Positions 37,084 through 62,059 of a stretch of DNA of 62,059 nt are shown here, in pieces. The position numbers were made by a program, and so were the translations under genes. How positions within the stretch are numbered: position 1 is the stretch's first letter; the number at the start of each line of letters is the position of its first letter. The notes beneath the pieces are model-generated. The model was not told the DNA's origin and searched no databases. It saw only the letters and a list, made by a program, of their open reading frames with translations. This stretch comes from Myxococcota bacterium (GTDB taxonomy: Bacteria; Myxococcota_A; Polyangia; Nannocystales; Nannocystaceae). Location: NCBI GenBank assembly GCA_039028615.1, contig JBCCHT010000059.1, positions 1 through 62,059 of the forward strand, written 5' to 3'.

Positions 37084-37581
37084 ATGCAACCGTCTTTCAC
37101 CGTTGGCGACAAGTCCGTCTACCCCGCCCATGGCGTCGCTGACGTCGTCGACCTCGAGAAGAAGGAAATCGCCGGAAGCGAGATCACCTTCTACCACCTC
37201 AAGGTGGTGGGCTCGGGGCTCAAGATCATCGTCCCGGTCCACAAGGCCGAGGAAAACGGCATGCGTTCGGTTGCCACGGCCGAAGAGATCGAAGAGATGT
37301 TCGAGCTGTTGCGGGACCAAGAGATCCCCAACGACCGGCAGACGTGGAACCGACGCTATCGCGGCTTCATGGAGAAGATCCGCACCGGTTCGCTGTTCGA
37401 GGTCGCCGAGGTCTACCGCGACCTTTCGCTGCTCAAGGGCCGCAAGACGCTGTCCCACGGCGAGCGGCAGATGCTCAGAACCGCCCAGGACCTGTTGATC
37501 CGCGAGCTGACGGAAGCGCAATCAGCGCCCGAGGATGAGGTCGTGGCTGCGCTCGAGGCTCCGTTCGAGGCCAAGCACTGA
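37084..37581 (+). CDS. cdnL: CarD/CdnL family RNAP-binding transcription factor
   Basis: FTVGDKSVYPAHGV Tudor RID, WNRRYR, KIRTGSLFEVAEVYRDL, LSHGERQML; AAGGAG SD. Confidence 0.93.
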   Translation: MQPSFTVGDKSVYPAHGVADVVDLEKKEIAGSEITFYHLKVVGSGLKIIVPVHKAEENGMRSVATAEEIEEMFELLRDQEIPNDRQTWNRRYRGFMEKIRTGSLFEVAEVYRDLSLLKGRKTLSHGERQMLRTAQDLLIRELTEAQSAPEDEVVAALEAPFEAKH

Positions 37582-49074: not shown

Positions 49075-52000
49075 CTACAGCAGCGACGTCAGGCCACAGT
49101 CCCCCACCCCGTCGCAACCGGCACAGTCCCAACGGAAGTTGTCGATGAGCACGGCGGTGGTGAAGGCATCGTCGGCCACGTCCGCGAGGAAGAAGCTCAC
49201 GGTGATGGTCTCGCCGGGGATGACCGAGGCGAGCACCGAGCGCCAGCCGGTCGCGCCGTGGTCCTCGAAGCCGGTCCCCACCAGCAGCGGATCGGCGCCC
49301 GTGATCGACATCTCCCCCGCGTTGGCCAGCTCGGTGATGGTGAAGGGCGTGCCGTCCTGCGTGACGGCGACGTTGCCCGTGAAGCTCCCGCTGTCGACCC
49401 ACACGACGAAGATGTCGTTGAACTGAGTGTCGACGTATTCGGGATACTCGCCCGAGAAGTAGGCGAAGTCGAAGCGGAAGCCGTCGACGCCCTCGGGCAC
49501 GGTGAGGGTGACCTCCATGTGCACTTGGTCGTTGAGGCCCAGCCCGGTCAGGCCGAGGCCCGCCAGCGAGTCCGCGCAGTCGTTGACGCCGTCGCAGCCC
49601 TCGAAGGGCGTGCCTCCGGCCCCGCCGTTGCTGCCCTCGGTCTCCGTGATCGGAGCCGGGTACGGGCCGCCGTCGGGGTTGCTGGTGGGATCGCCCCCGG
49701 CCTGGCTCGAGGCCGGCTCCACGACCACGCCGCTGCCGTCGGGCGGGGTGATGGCCCCCGTGCTGAGCAGCAGCATGTTGTTGCCCCCGTTGTGCTGTGC
49801 ATCGGGGTTCTGCGCGTCGGGACGCGGCGACCAGATCCCCACCGCCGGATTGGCGGGATCGGGCGCCGACCCGTACTGATTGATGATCGCCCAGGTCCCC
49901 GCGTCGGTGACGTTGAAGACGCTGTTGTCGAGCACCATCGACTCGTCGTCGTTCCCCGAGCAGCCCAAGCCCACGGCCTGGAACGCGTCCCCGGCCGGAG
50001 CTCCGGCCGTGCCGTCACACTGCAGGTAGGCGATGGGAGCCAGGCACGTGCAGTCGGCGAACCCGGGATCGTCGTCGTCACAGTCGAGCCCGGAGGTGAC
50101 CCCCGAAGGCGGATCGGTGTCGCCGTAGCCGTCACCGTCGTCGTCGTTGAAGCACCCGAGCGGATCCGCCTCGTTGGCTGCCGCCCCCGGGAAGGTGGTC
50201 ACGCTGCCGTCATCGCAGTCCGTGCCCGCGTCCACGCCCGCGGCCACGGCGTCCGAGCCGTAGCCGTCACCATCCGAGTCGAGGGTGCACAGGCCGGGCT
50301 CGGCCGTGGCTGCCCCCGGGAAGGTGGCCGCCGACCCGTCGTCGCAGTCGCTGCCGTCTTGCGCCCCCGTGACCGACCCGGAGATCGAGTCGTCGCCGTA
50401 GCCGTCGTCGTCCGCATCGGCCGTGCACAGCCCCGGCTCGAGGTCGGCCGCCCCCGGGAAGACGAGCGCGCTGCTGTCCCCACAGTCGGTGCCTGCCGTC
50501 ACGCCCGCGGGCGGGCTCGAGTCACCGTAGTCGTCGCCGTCGGCGTCCATCATGCACGCGGCGGGATCGTCGAGGGGCGCCACGCCGGGCCCGGCAAAGG
50601 CCGAGCTGTCGTCGCAGTCCGCCCCCGCGTCGGCCCCCGCGGGCGGCGAGGTCGGGCCATACCCGTCCCCGTCCGCGTCGACCGTGCACGCGCCGGGCTC
50701 GTTGGCTGCCGCCCCCGGATACACCGCAGAGTCGGAATCGACGCAGTCCTGGTCGTTGGTCACCCAGTCCGGCCCCGGAGCGTCGGCCGACAGCTCGCAG
50801 GTCGAGCCACCGAAGCCGTCGCCGTCGGAATCGAGGCACCACTGCCCGCAGATGGTCACCAGCGGGTTGTCGTCCTCGCAGTCCTGCCCGGAGAGGACCC
50901 CGGCGGGTGCGCCCGAGTCACCGTAGCCATCGAGGTCGGCGTCGGCCATGCACGCCGCCGCGTCTTCGATCTCGGCCGCGCCGGGATGGGTCGTGTCGAT
51001 CCCGTCGTCACAGTCCGTGCCCGCGGTCACCTGCGGCGGAGGAGCGTCGTCACCCCAGCCGTCTTCGTCGGCGTCGAGGGTGCATGCGGTGGCCAGGGGC
51101 CCCGCTTCGGCCTCCGCCGCTCCCGGGAACGCCAGCGCCAAGTCGTCGGCACAGTCGGCCCCGTCCTGGGCGCCCGGGTAGGTCGCCGAAGCATTGGCGT
51201 CGCCGTAGCCGTCCCCGTCGGCATCGACCGTGCAAAGCGTCAGCTCGTTGGCCGCGGCGCTCGGGAACACGCCCGGGTTGGAGTCGACGCAGTCCGTACC
51301 GGGATTGACCCCCGGAGCGGGACTCAGGTCGCCCCAGCCGTCGTCGTCGTCGTCGTTCATGCACAGCTCGGCGTCGTCGAGCTCGGCCGCCCCCGGGAAC
51401 GTGGTCAGCGAACCGTCGTCGCAGTCGCTGCCCGGGTCTGCACCCGGCGGCGGCGTGCCGTCGCCGAACCCGTCGCCATCGCCGTCCACCGTGCACAGCG
51501 CGGGCTCGTTGGCGGCCGCGCCCGGGTACACGGTGATGTCGGTGTCGATGCAATCGATGTTGTTGTTCACCCACTGCGGGCCGGGAGACGTCCCGGACAG
51601 GTTGCAGTTGCCCGGGTCGCCAAAGCCGTCCCCGTCGTCGTCGAAGCACCACTGGCCGCAGATGGTCACCAGCGGGTTGCCGTCCTCGCAGTCCTGCCCC
51701 GACGCGACTCCGGCCGGAGGCGCGGCCTCGCCATAGCCGTCGAGGTCTTCGTCGGCCATGCACGCGTCGGCATCGTCCAGCTCCGCCGCCCCCGGGTGGG
51801 TGTTGACCGAGCCGTCGTTGCAGTCTGTGCCGGACAGGATCGCCCCGGGCGGGTCGTCGTCGCCGTAGCCGTCTTCATCGGCATCGAGCAAACACTCGGC
51901 CGCCAGCGGCATGTCCTCGAGCTCGGCCGCCCCCGGGTAGGCCAGGGCCCGCGTATCGTCACAGTCGCCGCCCGCATCGGCACCGGGCGGTGGCGTGGCG

Positions 52001-53145
52001 GATCCGAAGCCGTCGCCGTCCACGTCGATGGTGCACAGGCCCGGCTCGTTGGCGGCCGCTCCGGGGTAGATCGCCGGGTCGGAGTCGATGCAGTCGGTGC
52101 CGTCCTCGATCAGCGGATCGATGATGCTCGCCGAGGCATCGCCCCAGCCGTCGCCGTCGGCGTCCACCGTGCACAGCGTGTCCTCGTTGGTCGCCGCGCC
52201 CGGGAACGCATGCGGGTTGGCATCGGTACAGTCGCTGCCCACGTCGGCGCCGGCCGGCGGGGTGCTCGAGCCCCAGCCATCACCGTCGGCGTCCACCGTG
52301 CACAGAAGCGGCTCGTGAATGGCCGCGCCCGGGTACACGCCCGCGTCGGTGTCGATGCAGTCGTCGTCGTTGTCGACGTGGTCGTCGCTCGGCGGAACGT
52401 CGCCCCCGGGCACACAATCGAGCGGATCGCCGAAGCCATCGCCGTCGGTATCGGTACACCACACGTTGTGGCACCCGAACAGCTCGGGGTCCTGGTCGGC
52501 ACAGTCGTCGCCCGGATCGACCCCCGGCGGCGGCTCGTTGTCCCCCCAGCCATCGTCGTCGTCGTCCTTGGTGCACGCGTCGGCGTCCTCGTTCTCGGCC
52601 GCCCCCGGGTGGGTAGTGTTCGAGTCGTCGTCACAGTCGTGCCCGGCCGTGACCGCCGCGGGTGTGTCGTCATCGCCCCACCCGTCGTCGTCGTCGTCGT
52701 TCATGCAGGCCGCGGCATCGTCCAGTTCGGCTGCCCCCGGGAAGGTGGTGTCCGAGGCGTCGTCGCAGTCGTCGTCGTTGTCGACATAGCCTGGCGGGGG
52801 CATGCCGTCGTCGACCGTGATCGACTCGTTCGGATCACCGAAGCCGTCGGAATCCGCATCGAGGAACCACAGCTCCTCGGGTTCGGGCTCGGGCTCCCCC
52901 GTGCCGGACCCATCGCCGGCCGATTCGGTATCGTCCGCCCCGCCCGTGGAGTCTCCGCCCCCGGATTCGTCCATCGCGCTGCCGTCGTCCGAGCCATCGT
53001 CCTCCGCGGCGGGCTGAGCCACACAATCGGTGCCGATCTGGCCCAAGCCATCGTCCAGGCAAGGGTCGCCACAGCCGACCGCCGTACACACGGGGACGAA
53101 CAGGCCGAAGCTGGTCACCAAACGTCGAATTCGATTCATGTCCAT
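49075..53145 (-). CDS. Large Asp/Cys-repeat lipoprotein (putative metal-binding repeats) with C-terminal choice-of-anchor-L-like domain
   Basis: AVGC lipobox; 21 DxDxDG[FWY]G...DCxD...PGAA units; C-terminal LLLSTG, FSGEYPEYVDTQFNDIF, GATGW, VLIDNFRW; GGAG SD. Confidence 0.88.
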   Translation of the reverse strand: MDMNRIRRLVTSFGLFVPVCTAVGCGDPCLDDGLGQIGTDCVAQPAAEDDGSDDGSAMDESGGGDSTGGADDTESAGDGSGTGEPEPEPEELWFLDADSDGFGDPNESITVDDGMPPPGYVDNDDDCDDASDTTFPGAAELDDAAACMNDDDDDGWGDDDTPAAVTAGHDCDDDSNTTHPGAAENEDADACTKDDDDDGWGDNEPPPGVDPGDDCADQDPELFGCHNVWCTDTDGDGFGDPLDCVPGGDVPPSDDHVDNDDDCIDTDAGVYPGAAIHEPLLCTVDADGDGWGSSTPPAGADVGSDCTDANPHAFPGAATNEDTLCTVDADGDGWGDASASIIDPLIEDGTDCIDSDPAIYPGAAANEPGLCTIDVDGDGFGSATPPPGADAGGDCDDTRALAYPGAAELEDMPLAAECLLDADEDGYGDDDPPGAILSGTDCNDGSVNTHPGAAELDDADACMADEDLDGYGEAAPPAGVASGQDCEDGNPLVTICGQWCFDDDGDGFGDPGNCNLSGTSPGPQWVNNNIDCIDTDITVYPGAAANEPALCTVDGDGDGFGDGTPPPGADPGSDCDDGSLTTFPGAAELDDAELCMNDDDDDGWGDLSPAPGVNPGTDCVDSNPGVFPSAAANELTLCTVDADGDGYGDANASATYPGAQDGADCADDLALAFPGAAEAEAGPLATACTLDADEDGWGDDAPPPQVTAGTDCDDGIDTTHPGAAEIEDAAACMADADLDGYGDSGAPAGVLSGQDCEDDNPLVTICGQWCLDSDGDGFGGSTCELSADAPGPDWVTNDQDCVDSDSAVYPGAAANEPGACTVDADGDGYGPTSPPAGADAGADCDDSSAFAGPGVAPLDDPAACMMDADGDDYGDSSPPAGVTAGTDCGDSSALVFPGAADLEPGLCTADADDDGYGDDSISGSVTGAQDGSDCDDGSAATFPGAATAEPGLCTLDSDGDGYGSDAVAAGVDAGTDCDDGSVTTFPGAAANEADPLGCFNDDDGDGYGDTDPPSGVTSGLDCDDDDPGFADCTCLAPIAYLQCDGTAGAPAGDAFQAVGLGCSGNDDESMVLDNSVFNVTDAGTWAIINQYGSAPDPANPAVGIWSPRPDAQNPDAQHNGGNNMLLLSTGAITPPDGSGVVVEPASSQAGGDPTSNPDGGPYPAPITETEGSNGGAGGTPFEGCDGVNDCADSLAGLGLTGLGLNDQVHMEVTLTVPEGVDGFRFDFAYFSGEYPEYVDTQFNDIFVVWVDSGSFTGNVAVTQDGTPFTITELANAGEMSITGADPLLVGTGFEDHGATGWRSVLASVIPGETITVSFFLADVADDAFTTAVLIDNFRWDCAGCDGVGDCGLTSLL

Positions 53146-53163: not shown

Positions 53164-54648
53164 CTATTGCGCGTCACCGCTGACGTTGGTGTTGGTGCCG
53201 AGCACCTTGAATTCGATGCGACGGTTGAGCGACCGTCCGCGCTTGTCGTCGTTGCTGGCGATCGGTCGATCGGGCCCGACCCCGCGCGTCTCGAGGCGGG
53301 AGGCATCGATGCCCTGGGCGACCAAGAAGTCACGCACCGCTTCGGCGCGGCGGCGGCTGAGGTCGAGGTTGTGCTTGCGTCCACCGACGGCGTCGGTGTG
53401 ACCGCTGATCTCCAGCCGAATGTCCGGGAAGTCCTTCATCACCGCCGCCGCCTTCTTCAGCCGGGGCAGCGAGCGCGGCAGGATGCGGGCCTTGTTGGTC
53501 TGGAATCGAATGCCCTCGATCACCCCGCTGAACTCGGCCAGCGCTTCCGGCAGCTCGTCGGGGCAGCCGTCGCCGTCTTCGAACCCATTGGCGGTCTCCG
53601 GCTGCTCGATGCACTGATCGTCGGGATCGAACAGGCCGTCGCCATCCGTATCGAGGACCGGGCACCCGCTCGGCGCGGGGCCGGCCTCGTCCACACACTG
53701 GTCGTCCGGGTCGAACAACCCGTCGCCGTCCGTGTCGACCATCGGGCAGCCATCGGGCGCGACGCCGACCTCGGTGACGCAGCTGTCCTCGGTGTCGAGG
53801 AATCCGTCGCCGTCCGTGTCGCGGACCGGGCACCCGCTCGGGGCGATGCCGGGCTCGTTCACGCACTGGTCATCGGGGTCGAAGAACCCGTCCCCATCGG
53901 TGTCCACGGGCTCGGGTTCGGCCGGGCGCGAGCGGCCCAGGGTCATCGACACGCCGAGCAGCGCCTCGAGGTTGTGGTCCCGAAAGCCGAGCTCCACGCC
54001 CCGCTGATTGCCCACCACGTCGCGCACGTCGAGCCGAATCTGGGTCGTGCGACTCAGGTACATCTTCACGCCGCCGCCGAAGTGAACCGACGGATCGACA
54101 TCGTTGCCCACCGCCGCGCGCGAGCTGCTGACCCCGAAGGCCCCCACGCCCACGAGCGCGAACGGGGTGATGCTCCAGCGTCCGAGCTGCCCCACCACGC
54201 TGCCGCGCACGTTCCACAGGGTGGCCCGCTGGGCATCGGTGGTCTCGGTCGGGACCGCGCCGCCCTCCGCCTCGAAGCCGTAGTAGCGGCCCGGGTAGAA
54301 GCCCGCCCGGCCTCCGATCTCGGGCGCCACGTCGGCGAACTCCTTGAACCCCTGGTCGGGCAGATCCATGCTCGGCTCGAACAGCTCGTGCCGGGATCCG
54401 GTGTAGAAGACCCCGGCAAAGGCCCCCAGCTCCCCCATGTTGCGCTCCGGGGCCCACCGGTGAATCCACCGGTCGTCGTCCCCTCGCGACGGCCGAGCGA
54501 GGCCCTCGTCCGTGGTGGACGACGGCGAAGGCGTCGTCACGGCCACGGCCGGGTCGTCCACGGTCGCACTCTCGGCCTCGGTGTCGTCCCCCTCGGCCAC
54601 GAACCCAGCAATGGGCCAGATCAACAAAAACTCCAGCGGTATCGTCAT
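53164..54648 (-). CDS. OmpA family protein: beta-barrel + TSP3-like repeats + peptidoglycan-binding domain
   Basis: Amphipathic strands (PFALVGVG, HFGGGVK, IRLDVRD), four DTDGDGxxDxxDxC units, ISGHTD, NLDLSRRRAEAV, NRRIEF; GAGGGAGG SD. Confidence 0.92.
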   Translation of the reverse strand: MTIPLEFLLIWPIAGFVAEGDDTEAESATVDDPAVAVTTPSPSSTTDEGLARPSRGDDDRWIHRWAPERNMGELGAFAGVFYTGSRHELFEPSMDLPDQGFKEFADVAPEIGGRAGFYPGRYYGFEAEGGAVPTETTDAQRATLWNVRGSVVGQLGRWSITPFALVGVGAFGVSSSRAAVGNDVDPSVHFGGGVKMYLSRTTQIRLDVRDVVGNQRGVELGFRDHNLEALLGVSMTLGRSRPAEPEPVDTDGDGFFDPDDQCVNEPGIAPSGCPVRDTDGDGFLDTEDSCVTEVGVAPDGCPMVDTDGDGLFDPDDQCVDEAGPAPSGCPVLDTDGDGLFDPDDQCIEQPETANGFEDGDGCPDELPEALAEFSGVIEGIRFQTNKARILPRSLPRLKKAAAVMKDFPDIRLEISGHTDAVGGRKHNLDLSRRRAEAVRDFLVAQGIDASRLETRGVGPDRPIASNDDKRGRSLNRRIEFKVLGTNTNVSGDAQ

Positions 54649-54881
54649 CTCGCTTCCCTCCCTCGGTGCGAATTGCTCCGGCGGTCGGGCCCACATGTCG
54701 CCTCGCCACCGCGCCGCCATCCACCGATGACCGACCCGACGACGGGCGAATGCGAGACCTCGCAGTCCCCATGCGCACGCCAAATAAGCGCCAATGGGCC
54801 AGTGTCACACTGGTCCACGGAGCCCGAACGAACAGGCCCCACCCCCGAATTCTTCGACCAATGTCACGCTATCCCAATCAC

Positions 54882-57380: not shown

Positions 57381-58976
57381 CTACCCCTTCTTGGGGGGGC
57401 CCTGAATCTGCTGCGAGACCTCTTCGACCAATTGTGCGGGGTCGAGGCCGAGTCGCTTCTTCTCTTGGCGAATCTGCCCCGCGTGATGCTTGGCCACCGC
57501 TTCGAGGGTCTGCGGCTGTTCTCGCAGGACCCGCATGAAGTCCCGAATTCGCATGCGGGCACGATCTTTGCCGACCAACGACAGGGTGTCGAACAAGGGC
57601 GGCGCCGCGGTTCGAGCGGTGATCGCCATGCGCAACAAGGTGAAGACCTCGCGAGCCTTCCACTCGTGTCGCTCGCAGAACTCGCGCGTGAAGGTCTCCA
57701 GCGCGTCGGGGTCGAAGCCGCGAGCATCGGCATCGCGCTCGATCTCGTCGGTATAGACGGCCAAGATCTTGGCGCAGTCTTCGAAGCTGCGTTTCTTGAT
57801 CGCGAGCTTCGAGGTGATCGCCGAGTAGTCGAGCGTGCCCCCGAAGAAGAAGCTGACATAGGGGATGAACTCGTCGAGCGTGTTGATGCGCTCGTGGGCC
57901 AACGCCAGCATCGCTCGCAAGCGATCGGGACGCAGCACGTCGCTGTCGATGCGCCCCATCAGCGTCTCGGCGTCCATCGCCCGCACGTCGTCGGCGCTGA
58001 AGGCCTCGAGCTTGCGGACGTCGAACACCGGGCCGCCCACGCTGACCTTGTCCCACTCGAAGGCGTCGACCATCTCCTTCAGGGAGAAGCGCTCGCGGTC
58101 CTCGCCCATCGAGAAGCCGAGCGTGGACAGGAAGTTCAGGAAGGTGCTCGCCGGGACGCCCAGCTCCCGGTAGTGAATGATCGACACCGGGTTCTTGCGC
58201 TTGGACAGCTTGCTCTTGTCGGCGTTGCGCAGCAGGCCCAGGTGATGCCACTGCGGGAGCTCCCACCCGAAGGCTTCGTAGAGCAGCACATGCTTGGGGG
58301 TGGAGCTGATCCACTCCTCGCCGCGAATGACGTGGGTGATGCCCATGAGGTGGTCGTCGACCACGTTGGCGAGGTGGTAGGTGGGATAGCCGTCGGACTT
58401 GAGCAGGACCTGGTCGTCGATCTCCTCGTTGGAGAACTCGATATCGCCCCGCAGCTGGTCGGTGACGATGGTGGTGCCCTGGTCGGGGACCCGCAGCCGG
58501 ACGACGTAGGGCTCCCCTTGCTCGGCCCGCTGGGCCGACTCGGCGGGATCGAGGTCTCGGCAGTGACCGTCGTACCCCAGCCGCGCCTTGGCCTCGGTCT
58601 GCTGCTTGCGCAGCGCGTCCAGCCGCTCGCGGGTGCAGAAGCAGCGGTATGCCTTGCCGCTGGCGATGAGCTGGTCGAGGTACTCCCGGTAGATGGCCAG
58701 GCGCTCCGACTGTCGGTACGGCCCGTGCTCACCGCCCACATCGGGGCCCTCGTCCCAGTCCAGGCCGAGCCACCGCAGCGATTCCATGATCGCCTGCTCG
58801 CTGCCCGCGGTGTAGCGCTGCTGGTCGGTGTCCTCGATGCGGAGCACGAACCGGCCGCCGTGCCGCTTGGCGAAGGCATAGTTGAACAGAGCGATGTATG
58901 CGGTGCCTACGTGGGGGTCACCGGTGGGGCTGGGCGCAATTCGGACCCGAGGGGGCATCCGGCCGGGGGTGGACAT
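57381..58976 (-). CDS. gltX: Glutamate--tRNA ligase
   Basis: RIAPSPTGDPHVG, LRIEDTD, PYRQSER, PTYHLANVVDDH, RGEEW, KLSKR. Confidence 0.97.
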   Translation of the reverse strand: MSTPGRMPPRVRIAPSPTGDPHVGTAYIALFNYAFAKRHGGRFVLRIEDTDQQRYTAGSEQAIMESLRWLGLDWDEGPDVGGEHGPYRQSERLAIYREYLDQLIASGKAYRCFCTRERLDALRKQQTEAKARLGYDGHCRDLDPAESAQRAEQGEPYVVRLRVPDQGTTIVTDQLRGDIEFSNEEIDDQVLLKSDGYPTYHLANVVDDHLMGITHVIRGEEWISSTPKHVLLYEAFGWELPQWHHLGLLRNADKSKLSKRKNPVSIIHYRELGVPASTFLNFLSTLGFSMGEDRERFSLKEMVDAFEWDKVSVGGPVFDVRKLEAFSADDVRAMDAETLMGRIDSDVLRPDRLRAMLALAHERINTLDEFIPYVSFFFGGTLDYSAITSKLAIKKRSFEDCAKILAVYTDEIERDADARGFDPDALETFTREFCERHEWKAREVFTLLRMAITARTAAPPLFDTLSLVGKDRARMRIRDFMRVLREQPQTLEAVAKHHAGQIRQEKKRLGLDPAQLVEEVSQQIQGPPKKG

Positions 58977-59025
58977 GGGCCCCTGCCTACCACAAGGCCG
59001 GCGACCCCAGTTACACTGGGCCACG

Positions 59026-59883
59026 GTGACGCAGGAGCATTCAGACAGCCAGGTCTACGACGCGGTTTGGCACGTGATCACGCGCCGCATGGGTGAGCGG
59101 GCGGCGTCGGCCGTCGAGCTGCTCGACGAGCTGATCCACGGGCACGGCCGACTACGGCGCCACGAGCAAGAGCTGGTCGCGGGCGACCGGGTGCTCAACG
59201 ACGACCGCGATCTGCTGCCCCGCGTGGCTCGGGCCACCAGCCTCGGGCTGAGCCTGTACCTCGGCAACCGGCGCATCGCCTCCGCCAGCGTGCTCGATGC
59301 CGGCGACGTGATGGACGTGGGTGGCTTCGCCGACGCGACGGTGGTGGACGCGGTGCTGCGTCGCCGCGAGATTTTCCGCGGCTCGCTCGACATCGCGGGG
59401 CGCAAGTACCTCGTCGCTGCTCGTCCGCTCTACGCCACCGACAAGCCCGACGATTACGGTCCCGTGGGCATGGTCGAGGCCTACCAGGACGAGCAGGCCT
59501 TCCGCGAGATGCTCATCAACAGCCTCCGCGAGGGCTCGGGACGCGAGGCGCGGAGCGACCTGCAGATCCAGACCGACCGCATGGAATCGGTCATGCACTT
59601 CATCGACGACGTCGCGCGACGCCTGCAGCTGCTGGCGCTCAACGGCAACATCATCGCCGCGCAAGCGGGTGATCATGGCCGTGCCTTCCGCGTCGTGTGC
59701 CGCGAGCTCAGCAGCCTCGCCGAGCAATCGAAGGAAGCGGTCGCCGAGGTTCGCAAGCTGACCCAAGCGATGGGCTTGAGTCAGGAAGAGTCGGAGACGA
59801 CCTTCGGCGATGCCGACTTCACCGACGCCGTGCCGACCTCGTCCGACGACGACGGCTCGGACTCGGCGCCCGCCGCCTCCTGA
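59026..59883 (+). CDS. Soluble Cache-like domain + short methyl-accepting-chemotaxis signalling domain
   Basis: SLYLGNRRIASA, IAGRKYLVAARPL, PVGMV (Cache-like); LLALNGNIIAAQAGDHGRAFRVV (MCP tip); GTG 8 nt after TACACT. Confidence 0.75.
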   Translation: MTQEHSDSQVYDAVWHVITRRMGERAASAVELLDELIHGHGRLRRHEQELVAGDRVLNDDRDLLPRVARATSLGLSLYLGNRRIASASVLDAGDVMDVGGFADATVVDAVLRRREIFRGSLDIAGRKYLVAARPLYATDKPDDYGPVGMVEAYQDEQAFREMLINSLREGSGREARSDLQIQTDRMESVMHFIDDVARRLQLLALNGNIIAAQAGDHGRAFRVVCRELSSLAEQSKEAVAEVRKLTQAMGLSQEESETTFGDADFTDAVPTSSDDDGSDSAPAAS

Positions 59884-60539
59884 GGCCGCCCCCCAACTTC
59901 GCTCACTCGGACGCGCCGATCCCGAAAGCGGCGTGACCGCGGCGACCGGCTGCGCCACGTCGCGCGCGGCCGGGGGCCGATGTATGCCTGGCAACAATGG
60001 CGGGCCAGCGCGGGCGGACCCTCAATTCTTCACGGCGCGAGGCTCGGTCCTGAGACTGCGTCATTTCCGCACTTGACAAACGCGGGTGCGGCCCAGGTTG
60101 GGGCGAGCTCGAAACGAGTCACCGACAATTCCTGCCGCCGAAAAACGTTTGCGACGTTCGTGTTCGATCGACTTGTTCGAGAGTCGACGACGACGCGCCT
60201 GAAAAAAACCGACGGCGATGCTCGCATGATCAGCGCTCGGCCGGTCGTCGAGCACCGACCTTCGCACCGAAGCCCGCCCGGGGATCTCGCGAACCCCCAT
60301 TTTGGTCTCCATGGCGATGCGTGGCCCCCGACTACGAACGCGTTTCGACTGCCATGAAAGAGCGACGACAAGTCCCGATTTTGTCCCGTATTTTCATAAT
60401 CTTGGGGCCTCTGATACAACGCGAATGACCGTGCATTGGACAGCGTGCACGTTCAGTGGACGACCCTTTCGCGTGGGATGGCTCTTGTTGGCCCGAGGTT
60501 CGCGTGATAGGCCGACCGTAGGCCGGAGATAGAAGGCGA

Positions 60540-62059
60540 ATGGATCAGATCTTCGAGAGCCACTTCGGGGGCAACCAGAGCTCCAGCAATGGCGGTGAGG
60601 TACAGGGCTACTGCCCCAAGTGCCGCGCGGACACGCAACACATCATTCTCGAGAGCTACGGCGAGGAGATCAGGCGCGTGCAGTGCGCCGTCTGCGGCGA
60701 CACGCATGCGTACAAGCCGCCGCGCGGAGGCGACGACGAGAACCCCGAGACGAGGGCCGCGGCCAAGCGCCGAGATCTCAAGAAGCCCGACTGGCTCGAC
60801 GGGATGAACCTGTTCGACCACAAGTCGGCCGTCCGCTACTCGCCCCGGGCTCGTGTCACCGAGAACCAGATCGTCGTGCACCCCACCTTCGGCGTCGGCT
60901 ACGTCTCCGAGATCGTCGGCGAGCAGAAGGTCGAGGTGATGTTCCGCAACAACCTCGCCCGCGTGCTGGTCCACGGCCGAGGTGAGAACGAGGCCGAGCT
61001 CAAGGGCGAGGCCGTCGACGAAGAAGAAGTCAAACAGCTGCTCGGCCTGGAGATGGGCCCCTCCCCCGAGGAGATCGCCGCCGAGCGCGAGCGCAAGCTC
61101 GCCGAAGAGGAAGCGGAGCGCCAGCGCATCCTCGAAGAAAAGAGGTTGGCCGCCGAGCGCGAGCGCCAAGCCGCCATCGAGCGCCGCGAAGCCGAGCGCC
61201 GTCGCCGCGAGGAAGAGCGCGAGCGCAAGCGCCAAGAGCGAGAGGCCGAGCGAGAGCGCAAACGCAAAGAGCGCGAGGAAGAACGCAAGCGCAAGGCCGA
61301 GGAGCGCAAGCGCGAGCAAGAGCGTCGCCGGGCCGAAGCCGCCGCCAAGCGCGAGGAAGAGCGCAAGGCTCGAGAGGCCGAGCGCGCCCGCAAGCAGGCC
61401 GAAAAAGAGGCCGAGCGAGAGCGCAAGCGCCAAGAGAAGGAAGCCGAGCGCCTGGCCAAGGCCAAGGAGCGCGAGCGCGAGCGGCAGCAAAAGGCCAAAG
61501 AGCGCGAAAAAGAGCGCCTGGCCAAGGCCAAGGAGCGCGAGCGCGAGAAGGCCCAGCGGGCCAAGGAGCGTGAGCGCGAGAAGGCCGCACGCGCCAAGGA
61601 AGCCGAGCGTGTCGCCGCGGCCAAGGCCAAAGAGCGCCTGAAGGTCCAAAAGGAGCGCGAGAAGGAAAAGGCCGCCAAGAACAAGGAGCGCGAGCGCCTC
61701 AAGAAGATCAAGGAGCGCGAGCGGGAGCTGAAGACCGCCGAGCGCAAGCGCATCGCCGAGGCGAAGGCCAAGGAGCGTGCCGTCGAGGCCGAGCGCAAGC
61801 GGAAGGCCGCTGCCGCCAAGAAGGCCGCCGCCGCCAAGAAGAAGGCTGCCGCCGCCAAGAAGGCCGCCGCCGCCAAGAAGAAGGCCGCTGCTGCCAAGGC
61901 CGCCGCCGCCAAGAAGGCCGCCGCTGCCAAGAAGAAGGCCGCCGCCGCCAAGAAGAAGGCTGCCGCTGCCAAGAAGGCCGCCGCCGCCAAGAAGAAGGCC
62001 GCTGCCGCCAAGAAGAAGGCCGCCGCCGCCAAGAAGGCCGCCGCTGCCAAGAAGAAGGC
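60540..62059 (+). CDS. Partial gene: Zn ribbon + Tudor-like domain + ER/K helix + histone-H1-like tail
   Basis: My translation from ATG 60540 (GGAG upstream) stays open to the window end: YCPKC...QCAVC, VHPTFGVGYV, long E/R/K/A tract, then K2-3AAAA repeats. Absent from the ORF track because there is no stop codon. Confidence 0.88.
   Translation, partial: MDQIFESHFGGNQSSSNGGEVQGYCPKCRADTQHIILESYGEEIRRVQCAVCGDTHAYKPPRGGDDENPETRAAAKRRDLKKPDWLDGMNLFDHKSAVRYSPRARVTENQIVVHPTFGVGYVSEIVGEQKVEVMFRNNLARVLVHGRGENEAELKGEAVDEEEVKQLLGLEMGPSPEEIAAERERKLAEEEAERQRILEEKRLAAERERQAAIERREAERRRREEERERKRQEREAERERKRKEREEERKRKAEERKREQERRRAEAAAKREEERKAREAERARKQAEKEAERERKRQEKEAERLAKAKERERERQQKAKEREKERLAKAKEREREKAQRAKEREREKAARAKEAERVAAAKAKERLKVQKEREKEKAAKNKERERLKKIKERERELKTAERKRIAEAKAKERAVEAERKRKAAAAKKAAAAKKKAAAAKKAAAAKKKAAAAKAAAAKKAAAAKKKAAAAKKKAAAAKKAAAAKKKAAAAKKKAAAAKKAAAAKKK
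61803..62059 (+). repeat. Coding tandem repeat (AAG)1-3(GCY)4 = K1-3AAAA
   Basis: 15/18/21-nt units continuing to the window end. Confidence 0.95.

Follow-up and report, generated by a model that had tools for sequence, protein, structure and literature searches.

What is encoded by the open reading frame (ORF) that runs off the end of this stretch of DNA, and is it a gene at all? The window analyzed here is an entire contig of 62,059 nucleotides (G000:C59, accession JBCCHT010000059.1) from the 12.3 Mb, 68% GC genome of a bacterium of the family Nannocystaceae (Myxococcota), denoted G000 below. The ORF in question (60540..62057, forward strand) extends in frame +1 from the ATG at 60540 to the last base of the contig, encodes 506 amino acids without a stop codon and runs out inside a Lys/Ala repeat. 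The initial annotation, made from the sequence alone, proposed here an unlisted gene for a transcription or chromosome-organizing factor consisting of a zinc ribbon, a Tudor-like domain related to those of PcrA/UvrD and CarD, a long helix rich in Glu, Arg and Lys (ER/K) and a histone H1-like tail. The gene is indeed real and conserved, its family being a bacterial one without a name, and it represents a new arrangement of known module types that is built on an uncharacterized family. All motifs and segments originally described are found in their places (CPKC at residues 25-28, CAVC at 49-52, HPTFGVG at 114-120 and KVEVMF at 130-135), and comparison with six orthologs indicates that the frame is under purifying selection (pN/pS of 0.10-0.29 in the core, residues 18-150, and 0.15-0.48 in the ER/K residues 181-270). 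The zinc ribbon, a Tudor domain of the PcrA/UvrD type, the predicted helix and the tail all stand, but the kinship with CarD and a helical spacer of ~36 nm do not. Most plausibly, the protein works as an RNA polymerase (RNAP) tether in the style of the UvrD C-terminal domain (CTD) and CarD, while being a member of neither family.

The key to this reading is the Tudor domain (60837..60980, forward strand). When 137 Tudor domains of the family are compared, using hhalign, with 28 UvrD C-terminal domains, the match reaches 97.5% (E 7.4e-12, 42 columns), compared with 79% over only 23 columns for 29 CarD/Mfd RID domains, so that the proposed Tudor-like fold is borne out as one of the PcrA/UvrD type rather than of the CarD type. 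The domain of the window protein itself scores 21.4 bits with the UvrD-CTD HMM. In a search of the PDB with the family profile, the top five matches were all UvrD/PcrA C-terminal domains (E 0.013-0.06), and the best three matches in another search had E-values of 0.004-0.007. Modeling of the core with AlphaFold (mean pLDDT 84, pTM 0.48) points in the same direction: residues 93-135 (pLDDT 86-95 per ten-residue block) match 5dma with Z 4.8 and rmsd 2.0 over 43 residues, and the Tudor model matches 7egs and the CarD structure 4l5g with Z 4.5 and 3.7, respectively, low Z-scores being expected for a domain of 45 residues. The top-probability PDB match in Foldseek (0.99) was 7egs_B, the UvrD CTD on the RNAP lobe.

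Membership in the CarD family was rejected because the PF02559 score is 14.5 bits against a cut-off of 23, with 21 of the 57 positions covered, and only one of the 137 family domains scores above 15 bits; furthermore, there is no Pfam match for the C-terminal helical domain of CarD, and what comes after the Tudor domain is a short linker and then the ER/K tract. Nor does the window protein reach the cut-off of PF21196, the Pfam family of the PcrA/UvrD Tudor domains; a short paralog from the same genome scores 20.8 against a cut-off of 23.9, and 4 of 25 family members match at E ≤0.1. DUF3553 is a weak look-alike of the Tudor domain (score 0.75). Neither is the gene a helicase fragment, given that none of the seven PF00580 matches in G000 is located on contig C59 and that the complete orthologs lack the helicase core, nor a substitute for a Tudor domain missing from UvrD, because the UvrD of G000 (on contig C19) has its own.

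Residues H114, F117, R142 and L144 align with H681, W684, K712 and L714 of PcrA, for each of which the alanine mutant was reported to reduce RNAP binding (PMC5397179). Of the two replacements, F117 is the residue found in E. coli UvrD, and Arg for Lys is a conservative change. In an alignment of 156 domains, drawn from the 150 top-ranking family representatives (ungapped rows only), the respective positions are occupied by His in 150/150, Phe in 147/150, Lys or Arg in 144/146 and Leu in 134/146. As to the partner, the PcrA CTD was reported to bind a hairpin with the motif [VIL]DxxTGE[VIL][VILT] in the SI1 insertion of RpoB, a motif also found in UvrB (PMC8318588). The RpoB of G000, with SI1 at G000:C6:7678-8130 (reverse strand), carries the strict TGE-hairpin motif, as do 19 of the 25 RpoB segments from 31 genomes, and DxxTGE is present in all 25. 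In the UvrB of G000 (G000:C53:8773-11013), the helicase interaction motif has lost its TGE triad, and RpoB is therefore the best known candidate partner. The link to RNAP thus appears to be independently supported by the four conserved interface residues and by the RpoB motif. A near-motif with TGE is also present in the beta-prime subunit (G000:C6:379-4572).

Several observations weigh against this interpretation. All fold and sequence scores with solved Tudor domains are weak (the best Z is 4.8), Foldseek found no match with E <0.001, the zinc ribbon scores equally well against unrelated Tudor domains, and the conservation of the His and Phe of HxxFGxG is partly built into the search profile. 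The genome already encodes an ordinary UvrD that has a Tudor domain itself, so that UvrD and the window protein would share the SI1 site. Binding of varied partners was reported for the same Tudor face (PMC5397179), and of DNA, with low micromolar affinity, for the CTD of E. coli UvrD (bioRxiv 2020.07.06.189035). The gene neighbors at orthologous loci show no link to transcription or repair, the length of the ER/K tract varies from 148 to 307 amino acids in 32 of the 34 complete orthologs (the other two were dropped from the measurement because the start motif was unmatched), and Lys-rich tracts of at least 30 amino acids occur on 41 ORFs of G000, including a peroxiredoxin, two glyoxalase-fold proteins and several DUFs.

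With these points taken into account, we tentatively favor a non-enzymatic RNAP accessory factor, with the Tudor domain docked on RpoB SI1 and the tail tethering DNA, a reading that we consider plausible although far from assured. In such a factor, the UvrD-type Tudor domain would grip the TGE hairpin of SI1 in the beta subunit, sharing this site with UvrD, the zinc ribbon would make a second contact, the semi-rigid ER/K helix would keep the polycationic tail off the acidic N-terminal domains and off RNAP, and the lysine-rich tail would hold DNA non-specifically, raising the local concentration on DNA. The short tail-less paralog would carry the ancestral core activity. The role proposed for the tail parallels that of the HMGA tail of myxobacterial CarD, which was reported to boost activity without being essential (PMC4374960).

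The family to which the gene belongs is large but nameless: the window protein is matched by no Pfam or NCBIfam model above the cut-off, and the nearest Atlas clusters consist of unnamed proteins of Myxococcota and Bdellovibrionota. A search with a profile built from 25 cores retrieved 1,302 cluster representatives at E ≤1e-10 and 3,452 at 0.001, the latter set possibly including UvrD tails, and the profile matches 121 of the 201 sampled genomes of the phylum, some of them via the Tudor half only. The family comes in three forms. The short form, of ~130-160 amino acids, ends after the Tudor domain; the paralog in G000 (C13:141320-141778, forward strand; L031:5320-5778), of 152 amino acids, consists of the zinc ribbon and the Tudor domain only, has Lys at the position equivalent to PcrA K712 and is the simplest member for biochemistry. 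The long form, found in the sister clade, adds an acidic motif at the N-terminus as well as a basic tail, which is at least 40 amino acids long in 18 of the 22 complete proteins, and has the ER/K tract in none of the 23 loci. In the Nannocystaceae form, the ER/K tract is inserted. By this comparison, the ER/K segment is the only lineage-specific part of the protein, and the basic tail is older than ER/K because most of the complete sister-clade proteins are tailed and none has the tract. The conserved aromatic/acidic N-terminal motif of the long subfamily (60540..60590, forward strand), recognized in alignments and of low confidence in the model, is more acidic in the sister clade (P0024-P0080) and could be a protein-docking tip.

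Searches with tblastn gave no match for the window core in phages or for the short paralog in plasmids, and a structure search of BFVD yielded nothing at E <0.001. Literature searches directed at related systems and at Pfam names, in a collection with few subscription journals, listed no paper on this family. Further unnamed relatives have the same Tudor module without the zinc ribbon and are encoded at five loci (L278:3389-3892, L281:3357-3917, L282:3473-3961, L280:3727-4830 and L284:2811-3935), which have either a very acidic N-terminus or open frames of ~370 amino acids and no Pfam family in the three of the five that were scanned.

The zinc ribbon that precedes the Tudor domain (60597..60710, forward strand) has four cysteines (C25, C28, C49, C52) and two histidines (H34, H56), all of them conserved in the alignment, and an acidic tip, Y-G-E-E-I-R; the model places strands at residues 20-25, 30-40, 43-49 and 55-57. 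This part of the initial proposal is thus upheld by alignments and model alike, and we infer that the ribbon binds zinc. The low pTM values (0.48 for the core model and 0.42 for a model of 441 residues) give no sign of a fixed packing between ribbon and Tudor domain.

Downstream of the Tudor domain, an acidic helical linker (60990..61079, forward strand; pLDDT 89-97), which is specific to Nannocystaceae and conserved in the orthologs, ends in a Gly-Pro-Ser-Pro helix cap and leads into the ER/K segment (61080..61802, forward strand). The composition, periodicity and structural model of this segment of 241 amino acids predict a long single alpha-helix. Residues 181-421 are 89% E/R/K/A and 71% E/R/K, with 6% hydrophobic residues and neither Pro nor Gly, and the net charge per residue is +0.05 in the first half of the E-rich span and +0.20 in the second. 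Compared with shuffled sequences, pairs of opposite charge (E-K/R) are enriched at i+3 (z 6.6) as well as at i+1, but not at i+4 (z -0.7) or i+7 (z -4.5), and an 11-residue repeat is dominant (lag-11 autocorrelation, z 10.4). There is no hydrophobic signal at the heptad period of 3.5 residues, so that a coiled coil was rejected. In the 441-residue AlphaFold model, helices span residues 176-305 and 324-440, with pLDDT below 50 at 297-323; thus, the predicted single-helix character of the segment holds on the strength of composition, the lack of a heptad and the model, except for this break. The tract is by far the longest of its kind in G000 (179 amino acids in a strict window, the next longest being 48), and in all 32 complete orthologs that were measured it contains only 0-3 Pro or Gly residues. 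The spacer of ~36 nm suggested initially does not survive the comparison: the length of the tract varies twofold and the tract is missing from the sister clade, so that there is no fixed 36-nm ruler, and 36 nm is a contour length only.

The Lys/Ala tail (61803..62057, forward strand), akin to that of histone H1, comprises at least 85 amino acids before the contig end cuts it; residues 422-506 are Lys and Ala only, with no acidic residues. Among the 32 complete orthologs, the tail is 24-264 amino acids long, in most cases with 31-58% Lys, and many of these proteins end in KPAA-type repeats. The H1-like tail alone is ordinary in this lineage. Of the 20 Lys-rich ORFs of G000 that were scanned, 13 have a Pfam family, TopA, UvrA, HU and a DNA alkylation repair protein being among them; 13 of the 188 contig ends break inside Lys-rich repeats. 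Lysine repeats were reported to stabilize protein-DNA complexes in GC-rich bacteria (PMC7398561), and the KPAA repeats of AlgP to be required for the spacing of polyphosphate granules (PMC9239181). By analogy, the tail suggests polyanion binding, not specifically chromosome organization, and of the role initially ascribed to the protein, that of a chromosome organizer is weakened by the occurrence of such tracts on proteins that do not act on DNA, such as a peroxiredoxin and glyoxalase-fold proteins. Lys-rich tracts (e.g. L081-L100) are also found on a YjbR protein, and this lineage-wide habit of tagging may merit a study of its own. One of the Lys-rich ORFs (L096:1-1191, reverse strand; G000:C55) has a strong match to the Pfam family Inhibitor_I10, a serine endopeptidase inhibitor.

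The tail is real rather than an artifact of assembly, which had been named as a way in which the proposal could fail. Matches to the gene are found in 29 of the 31 genomes, with a close ortholog in 17 of the 18 genomes of the same family and the short form only in the remaining one. A scan of the wider collection gave 265 loci, of which the best 80 were used; these overlap with the loci from the 31 genomes, so that the counts are not additive. The close group among the best 80 comprises 57 loci of the Nannocystaceae type, including those from Paraliomyxa, Nannocystis, Plesiocystis and Enhygromyxa; in 34 of these 57, the stop codon is reached, giving proteins of 397-714 amino acids, nearly all with the same layout. 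In addition, most of 60300-61939 is represented, without differences, by five contig pieces from sequencing run X1, which may be where the present DNA comes from, and in run X2, from another study, a related strain spans 60804-61475. These contigs and the 34 complete orthologs led us to reject an assembly artifact.

The same loci indicate where the missing 3' end lies. A gene for a CAAX protease (Rce1-like) is located downstream in all 34 complete orthologs, and the CAAX-protease gene of G000 is found where contig C77 ends, with a Lys-rich frame before it that closes with RRARKR, as in the two closest complete orthologs. The 3' end of the gene therefore probably lies on C77; no contig bridges the repeat. 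The outermost ~125 nt of C77 (L049:2541-2668) match a glyoxalase-fold gene of contig C36 in its tail, and in run X1 these last ~125 nt belong to a unitig that continues into the C36 gene, with the unique unitig ending at L049:2454. From the sequences, the assembly appears to have created a chimera at the end of C77 by way of Lys-rich repeats.

The RNAP tether has to be weighed against readings that assign the same parts to other uses. The Tudor domain might act as an adaptor or decoy that reads a TGE-like hairpin of a non-RNAP protein, or that of its own ribbon (resulting in autoinhibition or head-to-tail chains), and so modulates UvrD recruitment or an unrelated complex. The PcrA Tudor domain was reported to bind the same motif in UvrB, YxaL and YwhK (PMC8318588), the strict motif occurs on ten six-frame ORFs of G000, aside from the beta-prime near-motif, and the ribbon hairpin of the window protein, I-L-E-S-Y-G-E-E-I, looks motif-like by eye; however, this hairpin fails the strict pattern, the sister clade lacks its Gly (YEDEIR in 20 of 23), the UvrB of G000 has no TGE, and the models show no fixed ribbon-Tudor packing. 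We regard such an adaptor as unlikely, and hold in similarly low regard a polyanion scaffold without any RNAP contact, in which the tail and a basic surface of the Tudor domain would attach to DNA, RNA or, as with AlgP, polyphosphate, the helix being a spacer. The KPAA-type repeats of many orthologs, the same as those that AlgP needs for granule spacing (PMC9239181), the DNA affinity of the UvrD CTD (bioRxiv 2020.07.06.189035) and a weak resemblance of the ribbon to ribosomal L44e would fit a scaffold, but it leaves unexplained why the tail-less short members should retain the Lys/Arg and Leu of the face that binds proteins, and the isolated PcrA CTD was reported to bind no DNA (PMC5397179). 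Still less probable is a neutral origin of everything beyond a functional zinc ribbon-Tudor core, with ER/K and Lys/Ala grown by slippage in a lineage that adds tails to many proteins: the 41 Lys-rich ORFs, the contig ends that break in repeats, the 11-residue periodicity and the twofold variation in length are all compatible with such expansion, but the ER/K tract is unique in G000, purifying selection acts on its first 90 residues, Pro and Gly remain almost absent from it in all orthologs measured, and the basic tail is kept in the sister clade.

SI1 lies adjacent to the secondary channel's opening, and a protein docked there might direct the acidic tip of its ribbon toward the active site, stimulating transcript cleavage or altering catalysis in the manner of TFIIS, with whose C-terminal ribbon, and that of TFS (PF01096), it shares the Cys4 arrangement and the acidic residues at the hairpin tip. 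We consider this very improbable. At least two acidic residues are present at the tip (E42-E43 in the window protein) in 45 of 46 members of the long subfamily, and TFS4 is the best zinc-ribbon row in a wide fold search (Z 3.8, rmsd 2.0, 38 residues); however, this score is within the background, the short subfamily does not conserve the tip (64 of 101 members have one acidic residue there or none), the loop between the Cys pairs has 20 residues compared with ~24 in TFIIS, making the hairpin shorter, and two Gre factors are present in G000. The QTRSADE-type motif of TFIIS is, we take it, absent from the ribbon. Profile searches also speak against this kinship, as the gene is not among the four matches of Zn_ribbon_TFIIS (PF01096) in G000 at E ≤10, and PF01096 is not among the 25 families shown for the 25 family members. 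The reported use by TFIIS/TFS of two acidic residues at the zinc-ribbon tip in the secondary channel (PMC5715097) and the reported position of TraR, which occupies this channel and contacts SI1 (PMC6970531), would be in line with such a function. Just as remote a prospect is the full combination, an unrecognized class of RNAP factors in which an SI1-docked Tudor domain would position a TFIIS-like ribbon with its conserved acidic tip in the secondary channel while, in Nannocystaceae, the very long helix and the H1-like tail tether the factor to the chromosome; if true, bacteria would have an equivalent of the cleavage factors known from archaea and eukaryotes.

The RNAP tether that we favor can be compared with several known systems. 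With the C-terminal Tudor domain of PcrA/UvrD (PF21196; 5DMA, 7EGS, 7EGT), the window protein shares the fold, the HxxF/WGxG motif, the four RNAP-binding residues and the cognate RpoB SI1 motif, but it has no helicase, adds a zinc ribbon, has Arg in place of Lys and a shorter beta3-beta4 loop, and does not match PF21196. Among CarD proteins, that of Anaeromyxobacter has an H1-like tail. Myxobacterial CarD (CarD_CdnL_TRCF, PF02559) was described as the same kind of combination, a Tudor-fold RNAP module with a basic low-complexity DNA-binding tail (PMC4374960), whereas the Tudor domain studied here is of the UvrD type, which targets SI1 rather than beta-1, and is accompanied not by the CarD helical domain but by the ribbon and 150-300 amino acids of ER/K. 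A UvrD-type Tudor domain outside a helicase is not new in itself because it has been published for DinX, where conserved residues likewise led to the proposal of RNAP binding (PMC6511836), but DinX is a mycobacterial Y-family polymerase. The H1-like Lys/Ala/Pro tail is shared with AlgP and with the actinobacterial lysine-repeat tails of TopA, HupS/HupB and Ku, the folded domains of which are unrelated; here, in contrast to these, a long ER/K segment separates the tail from the core. This segment resembles the single alpha-helices of the myosin type in being rich in E/K/R, with no Pro/Gly, no hydrophobic heptad and charge pairing at i+3, but differs in the alternating ERER and 11-mer pattern without enrichment at i+4, and in its length of ~240 amino acids, compared with a reported ~200 for the longest and ~75 on average (PMC5378345).

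Work on UvrD-type Tudor domains has largely centered on their role as tags that recruit enzymes (PcrA/UvrD and, as predicted, DinX), whereas here such a domain is the core of an unnamed non-enzymatic family that keeps the residues reading the SI1 hairpin. If the proposed binding is true, this would be a new accessory factor that competes with UvrD at a lineage-specific RNAP insertion, SI1, the function of which has been called mysterious (PMC8318588). Apart from this, the Nannocystaceae form offers an unusually long predicted single alpha-helix.

Upstream of the gene, alignment of the orthologous loci reveals a motif resembling a sigma70-type promoter (TTG, 17-18 nt, TGnTA; 60485..60509, forward strand), a consensus match that 47 of 56 orthologous loci have in the 90 nt upstream, compared with 1 of 168 control windows, although the pattern was originally derived from 14 loci that partly overlap the counted ones. 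A single 151-nt contig from the RNA run X14, aligned at 60563-60713 with three differences, is too weak to count as expression. A scan of 58500-62059 with Rfam gave only one chance snoRNA row (E 0.26). The upstream context is conserved, with a divergent gltX, for glutamyl-tRNA synthetase (57381..59024, reverse strand; Pfam), in 55 of the 57 loci, and a gene for a protein with sCache and a short MCP-signal region (58882..59883, forward strand; Pfam) in all 57. Because the 5' end of the latter overlaps gltX on the opposite strand, its true start is probably later. The neighborhoods of 41 distant loci of the family include only lineage-level neighbors (kinases, aminopeptidase P, pseudouridine synthase, SRP54) that do not point to a common pathway, and the gene neighbors favor none of the readings weighed above. 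Elsewhere in the window, a 1356-aa protein of Asp/Gly/Cys-rich repeats (49075-53145, reverse strand) adjoins a protein with acidic repeats (53164-54783, reverse strand) that we take to be OmpA-like. A match to the CarD/CdnL-family RID (PF02559) is located at 37096-37272 (forward strand), within a frame of 186 amino acids 23 kb upstream of the gene, and similar genes lie near the ortholog in two other genomes (G002 and G007).

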